DNA from: Clostridiales bacterium UBA1234
GTDB lineage: Bacteria > Bacillota > Clostridia > TANB77 > UBA1234
Length of the DNA: 64,000 nt
NCBI GenBank assembly: GCA_002308995.1
Contig: DBWQ01000009.1
Coordinates: 12,852 to 76,851 of the forward strand
Reading direction: 5' to 3'
In this document: in pieces, positions 2,405 to 36,375 of the stretch
Position numbering within the stretch: position 1 is the stretch's first letter
How the letters are laid out: every line of letters starts with the position of its first letter
The notes under the pieces: generated by a model
What the model saw: the letters and a program-made list of their open reading frames with translations, nothing else
The model's database searches: none
Told to the model about the DNA's origin: nothing
Position numbers and translations under genes: made by a program

Positions 2405-3827
2405 GATGAATGAAATCATGAAAAATGCCTATGAAAAATGGGCTGAGAAAGAGTACATTTTTGAAAAAAAGAATGGTGCATATCAAGCAATTACGATGGG
2501 AGATTTTTTAAGGAAGGTCAATAGCATCGCGCACGAATTAATCAAAAGGGGGCTACAAGACAAAAGAATCATTGTTTTTGGACCAAATTCTACTCATTAT
2601 ATGATGACAGATTTGGCGGTGTTTTCGTATGTTGGTACGAGCGTGAATGTGAACTGTCAAACCGAAAAAGAGGAGTTAGTCAAAATCGTCAAAGCACTTC
2701 AAATTGATGCTATTATCTATGATGAAAGATTAAAAGCTGTTTTTGACCAAATGAAAGAAGAAGTAGGAGAGATACAGTACCTTGGAATGCAGTCTTTTAT
2801 TGAAAGCTTAAGCACGGATGACGAGACATTCGATTTAGAGGGAAGAGACGAAAATCTATGTGCCAAAATCATTTATTCTAGCGGAACTACTTCCACCCCA
2901 AAAGGCATTATGCTTTCTATCAAAAATATTTTCTCTGGTTGGGAATCCCTTCAAAGAAGAACCCCTTTTACCGAAAAAGATGTAGTTTATTTATTCTTGC
3001 CACTTCATCATACATATGCCAATATCTATAATTTTATTTATTCGCTATTATCTGGCTTAAGTATTTATCTATGTAGTGGCATTGATAAGATTGAAGAAGA
3101 ATTACTAGAAGTCAATCCAACCATATTTTGTGGTGTTCCGCTTATCTATAAAAGGATTTATGAGAACCATAAAGAGAATTTAAACACGGTATTTGGTACG
3201 AGAATTAAATATATGTATTGTGGAGGGACAAGATTTGATCCTGAGATTCGCAAAGCATATAAACTATGTGGCTTACCAATGTTTGAAGCCTATGCTTTAA
3301 CAGAAACTGCCTCTTCGTTTAGCATTGAATATCCTAACAAAGATGATTATGAAAGTGCCGGAACGATTTTTGAAGATATTGATGTGAAGATTATCCATCA
3401 AGATGAAGAGGGAGTAGGAGAAATCATCGTTAAAGGCGATAATGTTTTTCTTGGCTATGCCAATAATGAAGAACTCACCAAAAGTGTCTTCACCGAAGAT
3501 GGCTATTTCATCACGGGAGATTATGGCTATATCAAAGATAATAAGCTATATCTTGTGGGCAGAAGAACGGATATCATCATTGGAGATAATGGTGAAAATG
3601 TCTATGTGAAAGAAATCGAAAAAGCATTAAAAGAGTATTGCCAAGATGTTTTAAAAATACAAGCATCTTTGGTAGATGGTAAAATTCATTATAAAATCTT
3701 TATTCATAAAGATAGCCAAGCTAATATTGATGCGATTATTGAAGAATACAATAGCAAAGCAACGAAAAAAGACTGCGTTAAATTCTATGAAAAAGAATAC
3801 ACGGAGCAAATGAATTTGAAAGGTTAA
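2397..3827 (+). CDS. AMP-dependent synthetase/ligase (acyl-CoA synthetase-like).
   Basis: The AMP-binding signature IIYSSGTTSTPKGIML is present, plus the downstream GDYGYI...LYLVGRRTD motif. GGAGG lies 9 nt upstream of the ATG. Confidence 0.8.
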   Translation: MIKMNEIMKNAYEKWAEKEYIFEKKNGAYQAITMGDFLRKVNSIAHELIKRGLQDKRIIVFGPNSTHYMMTDLAVFSYVGTSVNVNCQTEKEELVKIVKALQIDAIIYDERLKAVFDQMKEEVGEIQYLGMQSFIESLSTDDETFDLEGRDENLCAKIIYSSGTTSTPKGIMLSIKNIFSGWESLQRRTPFTEKDVVYLFLPLHHTYANIYNFIYSLLSGLSIYLCSGIDKIEEELLEVNPTIFCGVPLIYKRIYENHKENLNTVFGTRIKYMYCGGTRFDPEIRKAYKLCGLPMFEAYALTETASSFSIEYPNKDDYESAGTIFEDIDVKIIHQDEEGVGEIIVKGDNVFLGYANNEELTKSVFTEDGYFITGDYGYIKDNKLYLVGRRTDIIIGDNGENVYVKEIEKALKEYCQDVLKIQASLVDGKIHYKIFIHKDSQANIDAIIEEYNSKATKKDCVKFYEKEYTEQMNLKG

Positions 3828-3874
3828 ACATGGACGTCCTCATGTCCATAGAAATAATATTTAGGAGGAAACCA

Positions 3875-4987
3875 ATGGATAATCAAAGAGAAAAAGTAGT
3901 TGTTAAAACAAGTATTATTAGTATTATTGCCAATATTATCTTGGCAAGTTTTAAAGCTTTTGTGGGGTTACTTGCCCATTCCATCGCGATTGTTTCGGAT
4001 GCGGTAAATAACTTAACGGATGCACTTTCGAGCATCATTACGATTGTAGGAACTAAGCTTGCTGGTAAGAAGCCAGATAAAAAGCATCCTTATGGTTATG
4101 GCAGAATTGAATATATGACATCACTCATTGTTTCGGGAATCGTGCTTTATGCAGGTATTACCGCACTAGTGGAGTCGGTGAAGAAAATCATTCATCCAGA
4201 GGAGGCAGATTACAGCACCGTCACGCTAATAATTATTGTAGCAGGTATTTTAGTAAAATTTGCTTTAGGCTTGTATGTGAAGAAAAAGGGCAAAGAAGTC
4301 AATTCTGATTCGCTTGTTGCCAGTGGTTCCGATGCCTTTAACGATGCAATTCTTTCGATTTCCGTTTTGGCATCTGCTATTATTTATTTACTATTCCATA
4401 TTAGCCTAGAAGCTTTTGTGGGTGCGATTTTGGGCATCTTTATTATCAAAGCGGGCATAGAATTAATTAGAGAATCTGTCGATAATTTGCTTGGCGTGCG
4501 CATTGAAAGTGGCCTTGCAAAGCAAATTAAAAAGGAAGTCATGAAAGAAGAAAATGTGCAAGGTGCTTTTGATTTAACGCTTCACGATTACGGTCCAGAC
4601 CAGTATTCTGGTTCCATCCATATCGAAGTGCCAGATACCCTAAACGTCGCACAAATTGATAAAATTTCAAGACGTATTACCAAAAATATTAAAGAAAAAT
4701 TTGGTGTAACGTTACATACCGTTGGTGTGTATTCGGCCAATACTAAAGATCAAAAACTAAAAAAGGTGCTTTCCGAAATGCACGATATCGTCTTCAAACA
4801 TGATGGTATTTTGCAAATGCACGGCTTTTATTTTGATGAGCAAGATAAAATGATTCGCTTTGATATTGTGATGGACTTCAAAGTACCAGATAGAGAAAAG
4901 GTTTGCCAAGAAATTTACGATGCAGTACAGAAAAAATATCCGGGTTACGATATTAGTATCAATATGGATATTGATATTAGCGATTAA
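3875..4987 (+). CDS. Cation diffusion facilitator (CDF) family metal efflux transporter.
   Basis: HPYGYGRIEY motif and six predicted TM helices. Start chosen at the ATG 5 nt after the AGGAGG (ORF track begins at 3830). Confidence 0.85.
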   Translation: MDNQREKVVVKTSIISIIANIILASFKAFVGLLAHSIAIVSDAVNNLTDALSSIITIVGTKLAGKKPDKKHPYGYGRIEYMTSLIVSGIVLYAGITALVESVKKIIHPEEADYSTVTLIIIVAGILVKFALGLYVKKKGKEVNSDSLVASGSDAFNDAILSISVLASAIIYLLFHISLEAFVGAILGIFIIKAGIELIRESVDNLLGVRIESGLAKQIKKEVMKEENVQGAFDLTLHDYGPDQYSGSIHIEVPDTLNVAQIDKISRRITKNIKEKFGVTLHTVGVYSANTKDQKLKKVLSEMHDIVFKHDGILQMHGFYFDEQDKMIRFDIVMDFKVPDREKVCQEIYDAVQKKYPGYDISINMDIDISD

Positions 4988-31580: not shown

Positions 31581-31688
31581 GGCCAAGAGCGGCCGAGAGG
31601 GACGCTCGATTTTGGTCGCACCACCCTAACGCAACCCCTTCTCGCACAAGGACTTTCAAAACACGTTAGCGACCAAAAGGGACAGACG
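31581..31688 (+). repeat. GC-rich structured repeat element, copy A (homologous to 35711-35831).
   Basis: About 75% identity with copy B. Shared nested stems: GAGCG..CGCTC, TTGGTCGC..GCGACCAA (8 bp) and CTAACG..CGTTAG, with a conserved tail CGACCAAAAGGGACAGAC. Confidence 0.55.
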
Positions 31689-31750
31689 TTGTGAAACGCT
31701 TCTGCGAGAACTATTTGAAAATTGAAAAAACAAGAAAAAAGGGGATAAAA

Positions 31751-32164: not shown

Positions 32165-32188
32165 AATAGGAGAATGAAGGAGGTTTTT

Positions 32189-32587
32189 ATGGGATTATTG
32201 GATGATTTAAAAAATTTGGGAAAAGATGTGTTGGATGGGCTTCAAACGATTTCAAAGGATGTGGCAGGAGAAGTATCTAAAATGGAGGAAAACAGACGTG
32301 CAGAAGTGGAAAAATCAAAAATTCTTCCAGAAAAATATGAGAGTTTTCCTCAATTTATGAAAACATATTCTAGCATGGAAGAGAAGAAGACTTTTCAGTA
32401 TCAAAGATGTACGATGGATTTTTACGGCGTGACAGAACAAGAGATAAAAGACTATCGTAACCAAATTTGGGAAGCAGGGTACATACAAAGTACGAATGTG
32501 CGTTATGATAAAGATAATACGTACATTATTGTGGATTATCATGAAGCAAGTCAAAAGTTAAATTTAGTATTTCATATTAAAAAATAA
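32189..32587 (+). CDS. Hypothetical protein.
   Basis: GAAGGAGG ribosome-binding site 6 nt upstream of the ATG. Confidence 0.5.
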   Translation: MGLLDDLKNLGKDVLDGLQTISKDVAGEVSKMEENRRAEVEKSKILPEKYESFPQFMKTYSSMEEKKTFQYQRCTMDFYGVTEQEIKDYRNQIWEAGYIQSTNVRYDKDNTYIIVDYHEASQKLNLVFHIKK

Positions 32588-34308: not shown

Positions 34309-34346
34309 AAAAATAGGAAACATGTTTTGCATGTTTCCTATTTTGA
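34309..34346. terminator. Bidirectional terminator between the convergent DUF47 and RT genes.
   Basis: AAAAAATAGGAAACATG tttt gCATGTTTCCTATTTT. Confidence 0.75.
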
Positions 34347-35537
34347 ATTTTGTGCATAGTATTCATTTACTAGTGACCTATACCCACATTTTTTGAGCAT
34401 GTCATAAGGAACTTTTTCATAATTTTTTTTGTTGTGTTTTCCGGTGACTAAATAGCGTTCTTGTTCTTGTAGGTATTGGTCGATGATTTTTAAACTCTCA
34501 GCAGTAGTGATCGTAGGGAAGAACCAGTACTTCCAAGAAAGCTCTTCTTTTTCAGCTTTCCCAAAAAACTTGCGATTATATTTACGATTCATGGCTTTTA
34601 AGGCAATCTCAGGAGTTGAGTTTTTCTTTAACATCCACCTTCTGATGCCACGAGCGCTTCTTCGAATTTTTCCTTTAATTTTTCGAAGAGAGTTTTTAGA
34701 TAAATCAATGGTTTTCTCATGAAACGAAAAGCCTAAAAACTCCCATTCATCGGTAGGAGCAAAGAAATATTCTTTTTCGTGGTTTACCTTTAAGTGATAT
34801 TTTTCTAAAAATTGCATCAGCATTTGCTGGTGCTTTTTTAATTCTTCTTCGTTATGACAAAACAAAATAATATCATCAGCATAGCGGGCGTATACTACAG
34901 GCTGATTCCAAAAGTATTCATCCATTTCTTTAATATAGTAATTGGCTAAAAATGCAGAAATAGGCGTACCTGCCATCACACCTTTTTGCTCCGTTAAAAG
35001 CTCACCATGATAGGTAGCGACATTACTTTGAAGCAAGGAAACAAATAGATTGAGGAGCTTCTGGTCAGTAATATCGTATTGTAAATGTGCGATGAGAATA
35101 GAGGTGTCAATACTATTAAAGTAGTTGGAAATATCCACTTTATAGCCATGCATTTTAGAAATATTTTTAATATTACTGATATTTCTAATTGCGGTTTTCA
35201 CACTGCTATTTTTACGAAAAGAATAAAGATTTGGCGCAAATAAATAGTCGTAATCATAAAGCAAATAAGAAAGAAGCTTAAGAGCCATCATTTCGTTTTT
35301 AGAAAAGGTATAAACAGTGCGCTTTTTACCAGAATGTCCTTTAGAAATTAAGTGCTTTTGTGGAATAGAAAAAGAGTAGGTTTCATTGGCGATTTGCGCG
35401 CAAATATCCACATACTCTTTTTTTTGAATAAACTCCTCTAACTCTTTTTTTTCCTTTTGAGGAACAAAATCTTTCTCCATTTTGTAGGCTAAAAATTCAT
35501 CCCATTTTTCTTTACTCGCAATATCCTCTAAAATCAT
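34338..35537 (-). CDS. Stand-alone reverse transcriptase (retron-like / defense-associated RT; not a group II intron maturase).
   Basis: RT motifs 1 to 7 are present: RTVYTFS, YSFRKNSS, YKVDISNYFNSI, GTPISAFLANYY, YARYADDIILFC and LGFSF. A VTG triplet (ERYLVTGKH) of the kind conserved in retron RTs is present. There is no maturase X or endonuclease domain. GGAGGA ribosome-binding site. Confidence 0.85.
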   Translation of the reverse strand: MILEDIASKEKWDEFLAYKMEKDFVPQKEKKELEEFIQKKEYVDICAQIANETYSFSIPQKHLISKGHSGKKRTVYTFSKNEMMALKLLSYLLYDYDYLFAPNLYSFRKNSSVKTAIRNISNIKNISKMHGYKVDISNYFNSIDTSILIAHLQYDITDQKLLNLFVSLLQSNVATYHGELLTEQKGVMAGTPISAFLANYYIKEMDEYFWNQPVVYARYADDIILFCHNEEELKKHQQMLMQFLEKYHLKVNHEKEYFFAPTDEWEFLGFSFHEKTIDLSKNSLRKIKGKIRRSARGIRRWMLKKNSTPEIALKAMNRKYNRKFFGKAEKEELSWKYWFFPTITTAESLKIIDQYLQEQERYLVTGKHNKKNYEKVPYDMLKKCGYRSLVNEYYAQNSK

Positions 35538-35540
35538 ACA

Positions 35541-35682
35541 TCCTCCATAAAAAGGGGAAAGAACAAATTGAGAATCGATTTATCGATTACGACAAGATCA
35601 TATATATTACAGCCACCTGCCAGACTATAACACGTAATATACGAAATCCCACTGCAGATGTTTCAAAAACATCTTTCCCCTT
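35541..35682 (-). ncRNA. Structured 5' leader / candidate msr-msd-like ncRNA of the RT, bracketed by an 11-bp perfect inverted repeat.
   Basis: On the transcribed strand, 5'-AAGGGGAAAGA (+35672-35682) pairs with 3'-UCUUUCCCCUU (+35552-35562), 3 nt before the ribosome-binding site. Internal hairpins include GATGTTT ttg AAACATC and CGTATATTACG. The transcription start is predicted at the first repeat. Confidence 0.4.
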
Positions 35683-35688
35683 ACGGCG

Positions 35689-35716
35689 ATTATATCATAT
35701 TCATCCTCACGGTCAA
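35689..35716 (-). promoter_or_regulatory. Strong sigma-A promoter for the RT leader.
   Basis: On the minus strand: TTGACC, a 16-nt spacer, then TGATATAAT (extended -10). Confidence 0.6.
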
Positions 35717-35831
35717 GAGCGACCAAGAGAGGCCGACCAAGAGGGACGCTCCTTTTTGGTCGCTAGCCAATTTTCAATTCCTTCTCTCAGAACACTTTCC
35801 GGTCCCTCTTTCCGACCAAAAGGGACAGACC
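35711..35831 (+). repeat. GC-rich structured repeat element, copy B (homologous to 31581-31688). It contains an internal 14-nt duplication.
   Basis: GGTCAAGAGCGACCAAGAGAGGCCGACCAAGAGGGACGCTCCTTTTTGGTCGC...CCGACCAAAAGGGACAGACC. Stems are conserved with compensatory changes relative to copy A. Confidence 0.55.
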
Positions 35832-35925
35832 TTCCAAACCTCTTGATGCTCTAGCTTTTTCTTGCTTGCTTTTTTAGAGTATTTTTGTTATACTTTCTTT
35901 GATTTTATTTTAAGGAGGTGTCGGT

Positions 35926-36375
35926 ATGGGCTACATTAGTGATATTCGTAAGATGGTGGGACATGCACCGCTGATGTGCTGTGCTGCGGGTGCTCTCATT
36001 ATGAATGATCAGGGTCAGGTGCTTTTGCAAAGAAGAAGCGATGATGGTCTCTGGGGGAATCCTGGTGGTTCGATGGATTTAGGTGAGTCGGCTGAGGAGA
36101 CGCTAAAAAGGGAAATCTTTGAGGAAACGGGTCTTTCTATTACGCATTCGAAGTTTTTTAAACTGTATAGTGGTAAGGATGGTTATGTGAAATATCCTAA
36201 TGGTGATGAAGTTTACTATGTGAATGTTATCTACATTGTGGATGGCTTCGAAGGCACAGTGAAGGTGAATGATGAGGAAAGTCTTGAACTTAAGTTTTTT
36301 GATATCGATGCAATTCCTGAAAAGAGGACGGATCTTTTGAGTTTAATTGTGAGGGATTTGAAAAAAGGGGAGTGA
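35926..36375 (+). CDS. NUDIX hydrolase.
   Basis: Nudix box GNPGGSMDLGESAEETLKREIFEETGL. GGAGGTG ribosome-binding site. Confidence 0.8.
   Translation: MGYISDIRKMVGHAPLMCCAAGALIMNDQGQVLLQRRSDDGLWGNPGGSMDLGESAEETLKREIFEETGLSITHSKFFKLYSGKDGYVKYPNGDEVYYVNVIYIVDGFEGTVKVNDEESLELKFFDIDAIPEKRTDLLSLIVRDLKKGE

Follow-up and report, generated by a model that had tools for sequence, protein, structure and literature searches.

The subject of this analysis is a 64,000-nt stretch of the genome of Clostridiales bacterium UBA1234 (GenBank assembly GCA_002308995.1, contig DBWQ01000009.1, positions 12,852 to 76,851 of the forward strand), the whole of which is called the window below. On its minus strand a reverse transcriptase (RT) gene is preceded by a leader that folds into a non-coding RNA (ncRNA) of ~135 nt. 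An initial annotation had described this locus as retron-like, with an msr-msd-like leader, and had named a UG/DRT-type RT with its own ncRNA as a fallback. It is the fallback that was borne out: the RT matches the UG26 profile over its full length and is paired with an RT-5 RNA. By the defining profile test the RT is a member of UG26, which belongs to Class 2 of the UG/Abi RTs, and by its covariance model the leader RNA is a member of the Rfam family RT-5 (RF03026). By analogy with characterised relatives, we consider it probable (roughly 60%) that the two form an RT-ncRNA particle which copies a short internal RNA template, possibly in a protein-primed reaction, with a putative role in defence or conflict downstream.

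Family assignment and fold of the reverse transcriptase

The RT_UG26 profile of PADLOC matches the RT with 504.7 bits (E = 3.7e-152; residues 2-397 on profile positions 3-396 of 398). All runners-up score 134 bits or less, among them UG17, UG4, UG27, Drt9, Drt3a, Drt2 and the retron RTs; the best named UG group after UG26 is UG17, to which the DRT10 RT belongs (128 bits), Drt9 reaches 102 bits, and the retron RT models stay at 55-68 bits against the 505 bits of RT_UG26. The RT remains below the cut-off in every NCBIfam model, including retron St85 (66.7 bits, cut-off 235), the group II RT/maturase model TIGR04416 (135.3 bits, cut-off 300), Drt2 (71 bits, cut-off 390), Drt3a (76 bits, cut-off 200) and Drt4. 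The profile classification thus places in UG26 what had been taken for a retron-like RT. In a Pfam scan, RVT_1 was the sole domain; an RT of about 400 aa without a fused known domain is what defines Class 2 in Mestre et al. 2022 (PMC9226505). These authors placed UG26 among the "unknown group" RTs, in Class 2 of the UG/Abi family, listed 35 members, of which nine have a YcjD/Vsr-like neighbour, and described no ncRNA. In our literature search this was the only work that treats UG26 substantively. One homolog (P0017) carries the JGI label "retron-type reverse transcriptase", which is misleading for the UG26 family; such labels on UG26 genes are wrong.

All RT motifs quoted in the initial annotation for the 399-aa open reading frame (ORF), namely YADD, GTPISAF..N and the KVDISNYFNSI-type motif, are present (YKVDISNYFNSI at residues 132-143, AGTPISAFLAN at 189-199 and YADD at 219-222). 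A VTG triplet, which had been read as the one of retron RTs, is found at residues 364-366 and is kept across the UG26 homologs. It follows YADD by ~140 residues, and because it lies outside the region alignable to retron RTs (in a sequence search of solved structures, residues 146-293 align to residues 117-269 of Ec86) it cannot be the VTG of retron domain 7.

By sequence, the closest solved structures are the GsI-IIC RT (E = 1.9e-23), DRT9 (1.2e-14), DRT2 (3e-9) and TERT (1.5e-7). The AlphaFold2 model (pLDDT 84.6) is a single compact RT fold that superposes with TM scores of 0.77 on the GsI-IIC RT, 0.69 on G2L4, 0.61 on DRT9, 0.56 on DRT2 and ~0.45 on retron RTs. A helical domain resembling a thumb is predicted for the last 120 residues, and the superposition on the GsI-IIC RT extends over the whole of that enzyme. 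The claim that the RT has neither a maturase X nor an endonuclease domain therefore needs a qualification: intron RNA is missing and RVT_1 is the only Pfam domain, but a thumb-like C-terminal domain is present and the likeness to the GsI-IIC RT is considerable. The further claim that there is no room for a group II intron RNA agrees with the absence of group II matches in Rfam, with a leader of only ~150 nt and with a terminator placed over the stop codon. This bidirectional terminator, which had been placed 0-30 nt after the stop, has perfect 15-bp arms and overlaps the RT stop codon, and on the minus strand a T run comes directly behind it; the gene that converges on the RT from the other side is indeed a DUF47 gene (PhoU_div match).

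The leader is an extended RT-5 RNA

RF03026 matches the leader with 59.2 bits (E = 2.6e-10) over model positions 1-104 of 104, the gathering score of this family being 45.7 bits, and all 11 homologous loci tested also exceeded this score. RT-5 belongs to a set of nineteen "RT" motifs adjoining RT genes that were reported by Weinberg et al. 2017 (PMC5737381), who gave no RT family for it and no function beyond the statement that it "may participate in retrons". In the literature searched, no paper refers by name to RF03026 or to the motif. Both P1 and P2 lie outside the Rfam match, so the closing helix P1 extends the catalogued motif.

P1 is formed by the inverted repeat that had drawn attention to the locus, two arms of 11 nt with 100% complementarity and 109 nt between them (Table 1). 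When the 151-nt leader was simulated 2000 times with a first-order Markov model, a perfect repeat of this length turned up three times; the leader itself has a minimum free energy of -39.4 kcal/mol (z = -2.6 vs shuffles). What decides the matter is comparative: the repeat is taken as a real helix because it covaries across 41 homologous loci. Its 3' arm ends 5 nt ahead of the GGAGGA ribosome-binding site of the RT gene.

Covariation was assessed in an alignment of 41 sequences (40 distinct rows), and the outer helix, the inner helices and a pseudoknot all covary. Pairs changing on both sides amount to 11/11 in P1 (93.9% of cells paired), 4/4 in P2 (92.5%), 15/20 in P3 (93-94%) and 6/6 in P4 (94%). 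The pseudoknot, which links the strand following P2 with the terminal loop of P3, was found by eye. The alignment was built with a model that lacks it, and the RF03026 covariance model takes no account of pseudoknots either; six of its seven pairs nevertheless change on both sides, with 93.6% of cells paired. In the window it comprises five Watson-Crick or G-U pairs, one A-G mismatch and one G-U pair. An alternative pseudoknot register was rejected, with just 39% of cells paired. Over the whole fold, changes on both sides are seen in 42 of 48 pairs, and the paired fraction of cells is 93.6%; none of 500 shuffles reached the observed values, and sliding the partners by 1-3 columns lowered the paired fraction to 36-50%. 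MAFFT and RNAalifold, run independently on nine sequences, recovered P1 as outer helix as well as P3 and P4, with compensatory changes in 20 of 35 pairs. The first two pairs of P2 compete with the last two of P1. A flanking helix such as a1 and a2 would form is present, but the enclosed RNA, which had been likened to an msr-msd, appears as a conserved pseudoknotted three-helix fold and not as an msd-type hairpin.

The strong extended -10 promoter predicted ahead of the 5' repeat arm was confirmed as the only such site between 33600 and 36500: it matches 11 of 12 consensus positions and has the TG in addition, and its -10 box ends 6 nt ahead of AAGGGGAAAGA (35682-35672). This placement is kept: of 35 bacterial homologous loci, 33 have a TATAAT that ends 1-9 nt ahead of the start of the RNA model, and in 27 of these the TGn is present too. 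Judged from these positions, transcription would start where the initial annotation had predicted it, at the 5' arm of P1, that is, at the first base of the RNA.

The RNA is a partner module of the RT

The homologous UG26 loci come from species-representative genomes (L001-L031) and from metagenomes (L050-L065), and the regions upstream of their RT genes can be aligned remarkably well. A covariance model with four helices, R1, found the RNA in 41 of 48 sources; with the filters off, five further loci were added as well as a weak match upstream of the most divergent RT (L026). The RNA adjoins the RT gene in 47 of the 48 loci where that flank is present. In the remaining locus (L065) the relevant flank is present, the RNA was not detected, and the RT is truncated (3534-4571). 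Two other loci show irregular RT genes: in L031 (5983-7205) the RT is broken into three ORFs, probably as a pseudogene, beside an intact RNA, and in L021 (6001-7695) the RT ORF is extended at its C-terminus to 564 aa.

In the window the RNA ends 12 nt ahead of the RT start codon. In five GC-rich loci (52-58% GC) it is found instead 22-37 nt downstream of the RT stop codon, on the same strand, with the fold kept via compensatory changes and with no conserved gene after the RNA. Three of these loci, L011, L015 and L018, are labelled Methanomassiliicoccaceae, and we refer to the group as archaeal-type. Since the structure and the partner gene are kept while the side of the RT changes, the RNA is an autonomous partner RNA of the RT and not a 5'-UTR control element. 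In these loci a conserved AAATAAATA, which could be an archaeal TATA box, lies over the RT stop codon, 20-26 nt ahead of the RNA.

In 27 of 36 bacterial loci P1 is succeeded by a stretch rich in T, which could give partial termination or the 3' end of the RNA. The distribution of UG26 is patchy (Bacillota, a Muribaculaceae metagenome-assembled genome (MAG), a deltaproteobacterial MAG and Methanomassiliicoccaceae) with clear transfer; such a cross-domain pattern is typical of accessory, conflict-related systems.

A candidate template and a candidate priming site

The largest conserved single-stranded segment of the RNA is J4/1, between P4 and the 3' arm of P1. Its 5' part, UCUCAAUU, is conserved and its 3' part is variable; only in some homologs is it U-rich. 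The UUCU at 35574-35571 recurs at 35563-35560, which gives UUCU-N7-UUCU after P4, and the period of 11 nt is seen in most loci, the archaeal-type ones included. This arrangement resembles the A-B-A' pattern of DRT10. In a permutation test, in which the 5' and 3' parts were exchanged among 38 homologs, the observed repeat length was 4.03 vs 4.11 for the null (p = 0.8); because the two copies show no signal of co-evolution beyond the conservation of each by itself, we keep the A-B-A' template repeat as a hypothesis only.

In a sub-family of five loci (L010, 5828-5967, as well as L012, L014, L030 and L031), J4/1 repeats the 3' arm of P4, L010 reading TCGATTCTC-AAA-TCGATTCTC, and the repeated triplets are TCG/TCG in L031 vs TTG/TTG in L030. 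Such a pattern would fit a template repeat of greater length or a second way of pairing with the 5' arm of P4.

On the protein side, the RT ends in a tail of the form SLVxE-[YF]-[YH], located 5-15 residues from the end within a predicted terminal helix. Most homologs have YY in this motif; in the GC-rich archaeal-type loci it reads FY or YH, and L018 shows FH-S. By analogy with DRT9 and DRT10, where priming is by a C-terminal Tyr or Ser (PMC12483538; 10.64898/2026.06.29.735271), this tail may be the priming site of the RT.

Proposed mechanism and alternatives

In the characterised Class 2 systems DRT2, DRT9 and DRT10 the cognate ncRNA serves as template (10.1101/2025.10.16.682844; PMC12483538). 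DRT9, consisting of a UG28 RT and an ncRNA, makes protein-primed poly-dA from a poly-U tract (PMC12483538), and DRT10 copies an A-B-A' loop into tandem repeats, likewise with protein priming, a stem defining the 5' boundary of the loop (10.1101/2025.10.16.682844). In the DRT10 ncRNA the 5' end pairs with the 3' end and so closes the molecule, a stem again sets the template boundary, and priming is by a C-terminal Ser or Tyr after a conserved helix (10.64898/2026.06.29.735271). Because UG26 shares this general design (closing helix, P4 with J4/1, C-terminal tail), we propose an RT-RNA particle, and we think that the locus would work most like a DRT9/DRT10 kind of system. According to this proposal, the promoter would start transcription at the first base of the ~135-nt ncRNA, with the RT gene on the same transcript, and in a fraction of transcripts the RNA would be released or terminated after P1 and the U run. 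The RNA would bind the RT as a scaffold and supply a short internal template, most plausibly J4/1 just 3' of P4, for which P4 would act as the 5' boundary. A residue with a hydroxyl group in the C-terminal tail (E-Y-Y) might serve as primer of DNA synthesis, in the manner of DRT9/DRT10, and the UUCU...UUCU arrangement would permit re-alignment, so that the product is possibly repetitive. This DNA, with or without a small protein encoded near many of these RT genes (see below), could act against an invader or in some other conflict-related role.

Several points weigh against this proposal. In sequence and fold, group II intron RTs come nearest to this enzyme, and a non-templating, host-directed role like that of G2L4 is conceivable. 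The tyrosine pair in the tail is not strictly invariant, L018 having F-H. The A-B-A' idea is without covariation support, and A' is base-paired inside P1. No terminator lies between the RNA and the RT ORF in bacterial loci, so the RNA could act only in cis. The neighbours of the RT in the window are of housekeeping type (PiT, DUF47, two NUDIX proteins, a beta-lactamase-fold protein and DUF1963), the defence prediction for UG26 was inconclusive in Mestre et al. 2022 (PMC9226505), and no UG26 homolog was found in IMG/VR viral contigs, on which ground a viral origin of the locus was also rejected. A defence role of the locus is unproven.

Among other explanations, the one with most to say for itself is that a group II intron-like RT was domesticated for a task of the host such as DNA repair or damage tolerance, on the lines put forward for G2L4, with the RNA as a cofactor and the locus not being a defence system; we regard it as rather unlikely. 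It would fit the GsI-IIC RT and G2L4 as closest solved relatives, the housekeeping-type neighbourhoods, the absence of viral-contig copies and the inconclusive defence score (PMC9226505), but less so the patchy distribution with its clear transfer between lineages, flanking genes that vary apart from RT, RNA and small protein, and a group II RT/maturase score of 135 vs 300 bits. We know of no dedicated structured RNA for G2L4. If the RNA were instead a cis-acting 5' leader only, that is, an attenuator (P1 plus U run) or a translational autoregulator near the ribosome-binding site, then its contiguity with the RT mRNA in bacteria, the end of P1 5 nt before the Shine-Dalgarno sequence and the T run in 27 of 36 loci would be accounted for. 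This we hold to be improbable, given that the RNA lies downstream of the RT stop codon, and upstream of no conserved gene, in five GC-rich loci, that a 135-nt pseudoknotted fold kept from Clostridia to Methanomassiliicoccaceae exceeds the needs of an attenuator, and that the characterised Class 2 UG RTs in the literature all use a neighbouring RNA in trans as template.

A minimal retron, in which the helix would be a1/a2, the enclosed RNA the msr-msd and the product a branched msDNA made from the 2'-OH of a G near a1, is very improbable. Its appeal lies in the order of promoter, inverted repeat, structured RNA, inverted repeat and RT, which resembles a retron layout, and in the speculation of Weinberg et al. 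2017 (PMC5737381) that many of the RT-n motifs belong to retrons. It is contradicted by the retron models, which are far under their cut-offs (66.7 vs 235 bits) for an RT that falls into UG26, by the distance to retron RT folds (TM ~0.45), by an enclosed RNA that has a highly conserved pseudoknotted fold and not a variable msd hairpin, by the position of VTG outside the retron-alignable region, by the lack of a retron-type effector in the operon and by the RNA standing after the RT in the archaeal-type loci. To our knowledge, retrons with the RNA after the RT do not exist among those described. DRT2 performs rolling-circle synthesis of a gene. To a DRT2-like copying of the P1-enclosed RNA into a concatemer with a stop-free "Neo"-type gene we give the least credence: P1 does join the ends of the enclosed RNA, as rolling-circle template jumping needs, and DRT2 is a Class 2 relative, but the Drt2 model reaches only 71 vs 390 bits, the 109-nt unit is not a multiple of 3, and the window concatemer has 3-7 stops per frame over three copies. 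A search for a Neo ORF of this kind, in concatemers of the enclosed or the full RNA, met stops in all frames on both strands in the window and in most homologs, and the candidate was dropped.

Returning to the templated RT-RNA particle, a more far-reaching version can be sketched, which we consider doubtful, if less so than the alternatives above. UG26 and RT-5 would then represent a fourth mechanistic type of ncRNA-templated Class 2 UG RT, telomerase-like, with an 11-nt template UUCUCAAUUNN and a UUCU alignment site, an enclosing helix, a pseudoknot and P4 as boundary, tandem-repeat DNA primed by a C-terminal Tyr, and the small protein with its N-terminal amphipathic helix as sensor or effector, spread between gut Bacillota and methanogenic archaea.

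Features of the locus and its neighbourhood

Table 1. Coordinates of the features discussed (window positions unless a homologous locus is given)
Feature	Coordinates	Strand	Basis or remark
UG26 reverse transcriptase, 399 aa, Class 2 UG/Abi RT	34338..35537	-	RT_UG26 profile, RVT_1, AlphaFold2 model
RT ribosome-binding site GGAGGA	35541..35546	-	sequence; 3 nt ahead of ATG at 35537
RT C-terminal tail SLVNEYYAQNSK, E-[YF]-[YH] motif, candidate protein-priming site	34341..34373	-	homolog comparison
Sigma-70-type extended -10 promoter: TTGACC 35716-35711, 16-nt spacer, TG 35697-35696, TATAAT 35694-35689	35689..35716	-	consensus match
Full ncRNA P1-P2-pseudoknot-P3-P4, ~135 nt, UG26-associated RT-5 RNA as extended here	35549..35684	-	covariance model R1, 138 bits, E 1e-28
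RF03026 (RT-5 RNA) match: P3, P4 and flanking single strands, not P1 or P2	35560..35663	-	Rfam covariance model
P1 5' arm (a1 of the initial annotation), AAGGGGAAAGA	35672..35682	-	11/11 pairs change on both sides
P1 3' arm (a2 of the initial annotation), UCUUUCCCCUU, then UUU 35551-35549	35552..35562	-	pairs with AAGGGGAAAGA
P2 hairpin GAUGUUU-UUG-AAACAUC	35657..35673	-	4/4 modelled pairs covary
Pseudoknot 5' strand UCUGCAG, after P2	35652..35658	-	pairs with P3 terminal loop
Pseudoknot 3' strand UGGCAGG, P3 terminal loop	35616..35622	-	pairs with UCUGCAG
P3, long interrupted hairpin (P3a/b/c), one invariant G-C and one invariant G-U pair	35593..35651	-	covariation
P4 hairpin AAUCGA-UAAA-UCGAUU	35573..35588	-	6/6 pairs covary
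J4/1 CUCAAUUUGU, largest conserved single-stranded segment, candidate template	35563..35572	-	alignment; template role hypothetical
Bidirectional intrinsic terminator hairpin, common to RT and DUF47 genes	34310..34344	.	15-nt arms, 100% complementary
Small linked protein, 132 aa from conserved MGLLDD start (listed ORF begins at 32174), candidate accessory partner	32189..32587	+	family linkage
Small linked protein, L001	7189-7599	-	further example
Small linked protein, L191	3501-3908		further example
Downstream RT-5 RNA, L011	4226-4357		
Downstream RT-5 RNA, L015	5879-6008		
Downstream RT-5 RNA, L018	7219-7348		
Downstream RT-5 RNA, L058	1370-1508		
Downstream RT-5 RNA, L059	1474-1607		
~235-aa protein, L020	7243-7959		
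~235-aa protein, L022	7236-7946		
~235-aa protein, L024	7219-7926		
~235-aa protein, L064	5072-5794		
~235-aa protein, L185	3800-4507		

When all ORFs within 4.5 kb of the RT were clustered for 41 loci, a small-protein family (93-160 aa) was the only widely recurring one besides the RT. Its gene is convergent with the RT gene in 24 loci, mostly 0-50 nt past the RT stop codon, and with tblastn it was detected in ~30 loci including the window, where it is 1.75 kb from the RT with a PiT phosphate transporter and its DUF47 partner in between. The link also holds in the reverse direction: starting from the small protein, four of four long contigs had a convergent 390-400-aa RVT_1 gene within 1.6 kb, and the RNA was present in all four. 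By tblastn, several bacterial loci lack the protein, as do those GC-rich archaeal-type loci whose flanks were usable, and for this reason we regard it as accessory and not as a core component. In this family an N-terminal helix (MGLFDxLKK) is joined to a C-terminal beta-alpha-beta domain of the Mog1/PsbP-like kind, which ends in ...NTYIIVD...LVFHIKK; the protein has no Pfam or PADLOC match, and we came across no mention of it where PMC9226505 describes UG26. The statement that the RT has no adjacent effector gene holds for the operon, since the RT is the only gene in its transcription unit, but has to be amended by this family-linked protein on the opposite strand.

No defence genes were seen among the flanking genes examined in the window. 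Across the loci the neighbours are mostly housekeeping genes, as read by eye from their translations, and apart from RT, RNA and small protein they differ from locus to locus. No significant Pfam match was obtained for the neighbour proteins of 86 aa in L012, 267 aa in L026, 142 aa in L018, 183 aa in L027 and 235 aa in the Bacilli loci. The 183-aa protein (L027, 5265-5816, plus strand, Lachnospiraceae) is encoded upstream of the RNA on the same strand and combines an N-terminal MGLLDKLFG motif, as in the small protein, with another C-terminal domain, which hints at a shared N-terminal module with exchangeable C-terminal domains. In a subclade of Bacilli MAGs the protein of ~235 aa is encoded between RT and small protein, or, in L064, upstream of the RNA; its LEVGGGFFP motif resembles methyltransferase motif I, and its presence may be lineage-specific synteny. 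In L190 (2028-3428) a UPF0236-family transposase stands beside the neighbour gene of the small protein, at the place of the RT in the related L189.

The window also holds a GC-rich element of ~115 nt in two directly oriented copies with ~70% identity (31585-31695 and 35715-35845), whose internal inverted repeats contain GTCCCTYTTGGTCG / CGACCAAAA; a 14-mer of the element occurs six times in the window vs 0.36 times expected. One copy, which abuts the RT promoter, stands ahead of a NUDIX gene at 35926, the second stands ahead of the operon of the small protein, and together they bracket a block of 4.2 kb with small protein, PiT, DUF47, RT and RNA. No Rfam match and no convincing shared fold were found for the element, which could be an operator, a leader or the remnant of an insertion boundary.

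Significance

Both components of this locus are already catalogued, the RT-5 RNA since 2017 and UG26 since 2022, and nothing as yet shows a mechanism outside the known range. What may be new is the association of UG26 with RT-5, a pseudoknotted fold that goes beyond the catalogued motif, the permuted gene order of the archaeal-type loci and the linked small protein. Each of the Class 2 UG RTs studied so far has turned out unexpected, with gene synthesis by DRT2, poly-dA by DRT9 and telomerase-like repeats by DRT10. UG26 is now tied to a specific structured RNA that was catalogued in 2017 without a partner family, and this RNA is an independent module that is found in archaeal genomes as well. 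If the product should be templated repeat DNA, the link between bacterial RTs and telomerase would be extended to a second lineage and to archaea. UG26 is an obvious experimental target in a fast-moving field.

Comparison with known systems

In the defining features that gave a clear answer, the locus differs from retrons, group II introns, diversity-generating retroelements (DGRs), DRT2, DRT9 and DRT10; the helix-flanked RNA, as compared with retrons, and the UUCU-N7-UUCU after P4, as compared with DRT10, speak neither way. That the RT is not that of a DGR is in line with the initial annotation: no repeat pair of the template-repeat/variable-repeat (TR/VR) type and no long direct repeat pair is present in or near the locus, where the ~115-nt intergenic element is the sole long repeat, and none of the flanking genes tested (PiT, DUF47, NUDIX and others) resembles a DGR accessory protein. 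With the group II RTs (GsI-IIC RT, G2L4), which are its best sequence and structure matches among solved structures, the RT shares the compact layout of fingers, palm, thumb and C-terminal domain. It differs from group II introns in the absence of intron RNA domains (Rfam) and in a TIGR04416 score under the cut-off, and it has a dedicated 135-nt RNA instead.

To the UG26 systems of PMC9226505 it corresponds in the full-length profile match, in an RT of ~400 aa without an extra known domain and in an inconclusive defence context. Unlike in that description, the RT is here always paired with an RT-5 RNA and in ~30 loci with the small protein, and the YcjD-like gene is not present in the window. 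From RF03026, whose model is matched over its full length and above the gathering score next to an RT gene, just as the motif class was defined, the RNA differs in that P1 and P2 lie outside the Rfam match.

With DRT9 the locus has in common an RT with an upstream ncRNA and no obligatory effector, as well as two adjacent conserved aromatic or Tyr residues in the C-terminal tail and a TM score of 0.61. It differs by a Drt9 profile score of 102 bits, by an RT that is 100 aa shorter and by the lack of a universally conserved poly-U tract. The parallels with DRT10 (UG17) comprise a Class 2 UG RT, an ncRNA of ~135 nt closed by 5'/3' pairing, a hairpin standing immediately 5' of a single-stranded loop that is variable in part, and a conserved C-terminal helix or tail with hydroxyl residues. 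On the other hand, no SLATT domain occurs among the flanking genes of the window and no neighbour except the small protein is conserved, the RNA fold with its pseudoknot is distinct, UUCU-N7-UUCU is present but has no covariation support, and the UG17 profile scores 128 bits vs 505 for UG26.

The core of telomerase RNA consists of a template, a template-boundary helix, a pseudoknot and a core-enclosing helix. The RNA described here likewise has P1 as its enclosing helix, together with a pseudoknot and a hairpin directly 5' of a single strand with a short terminal repeat (compare 10.1101/2025.10.16.682844), a likeness that is topological only, and TERT is a detectable sequence relative of the RT.

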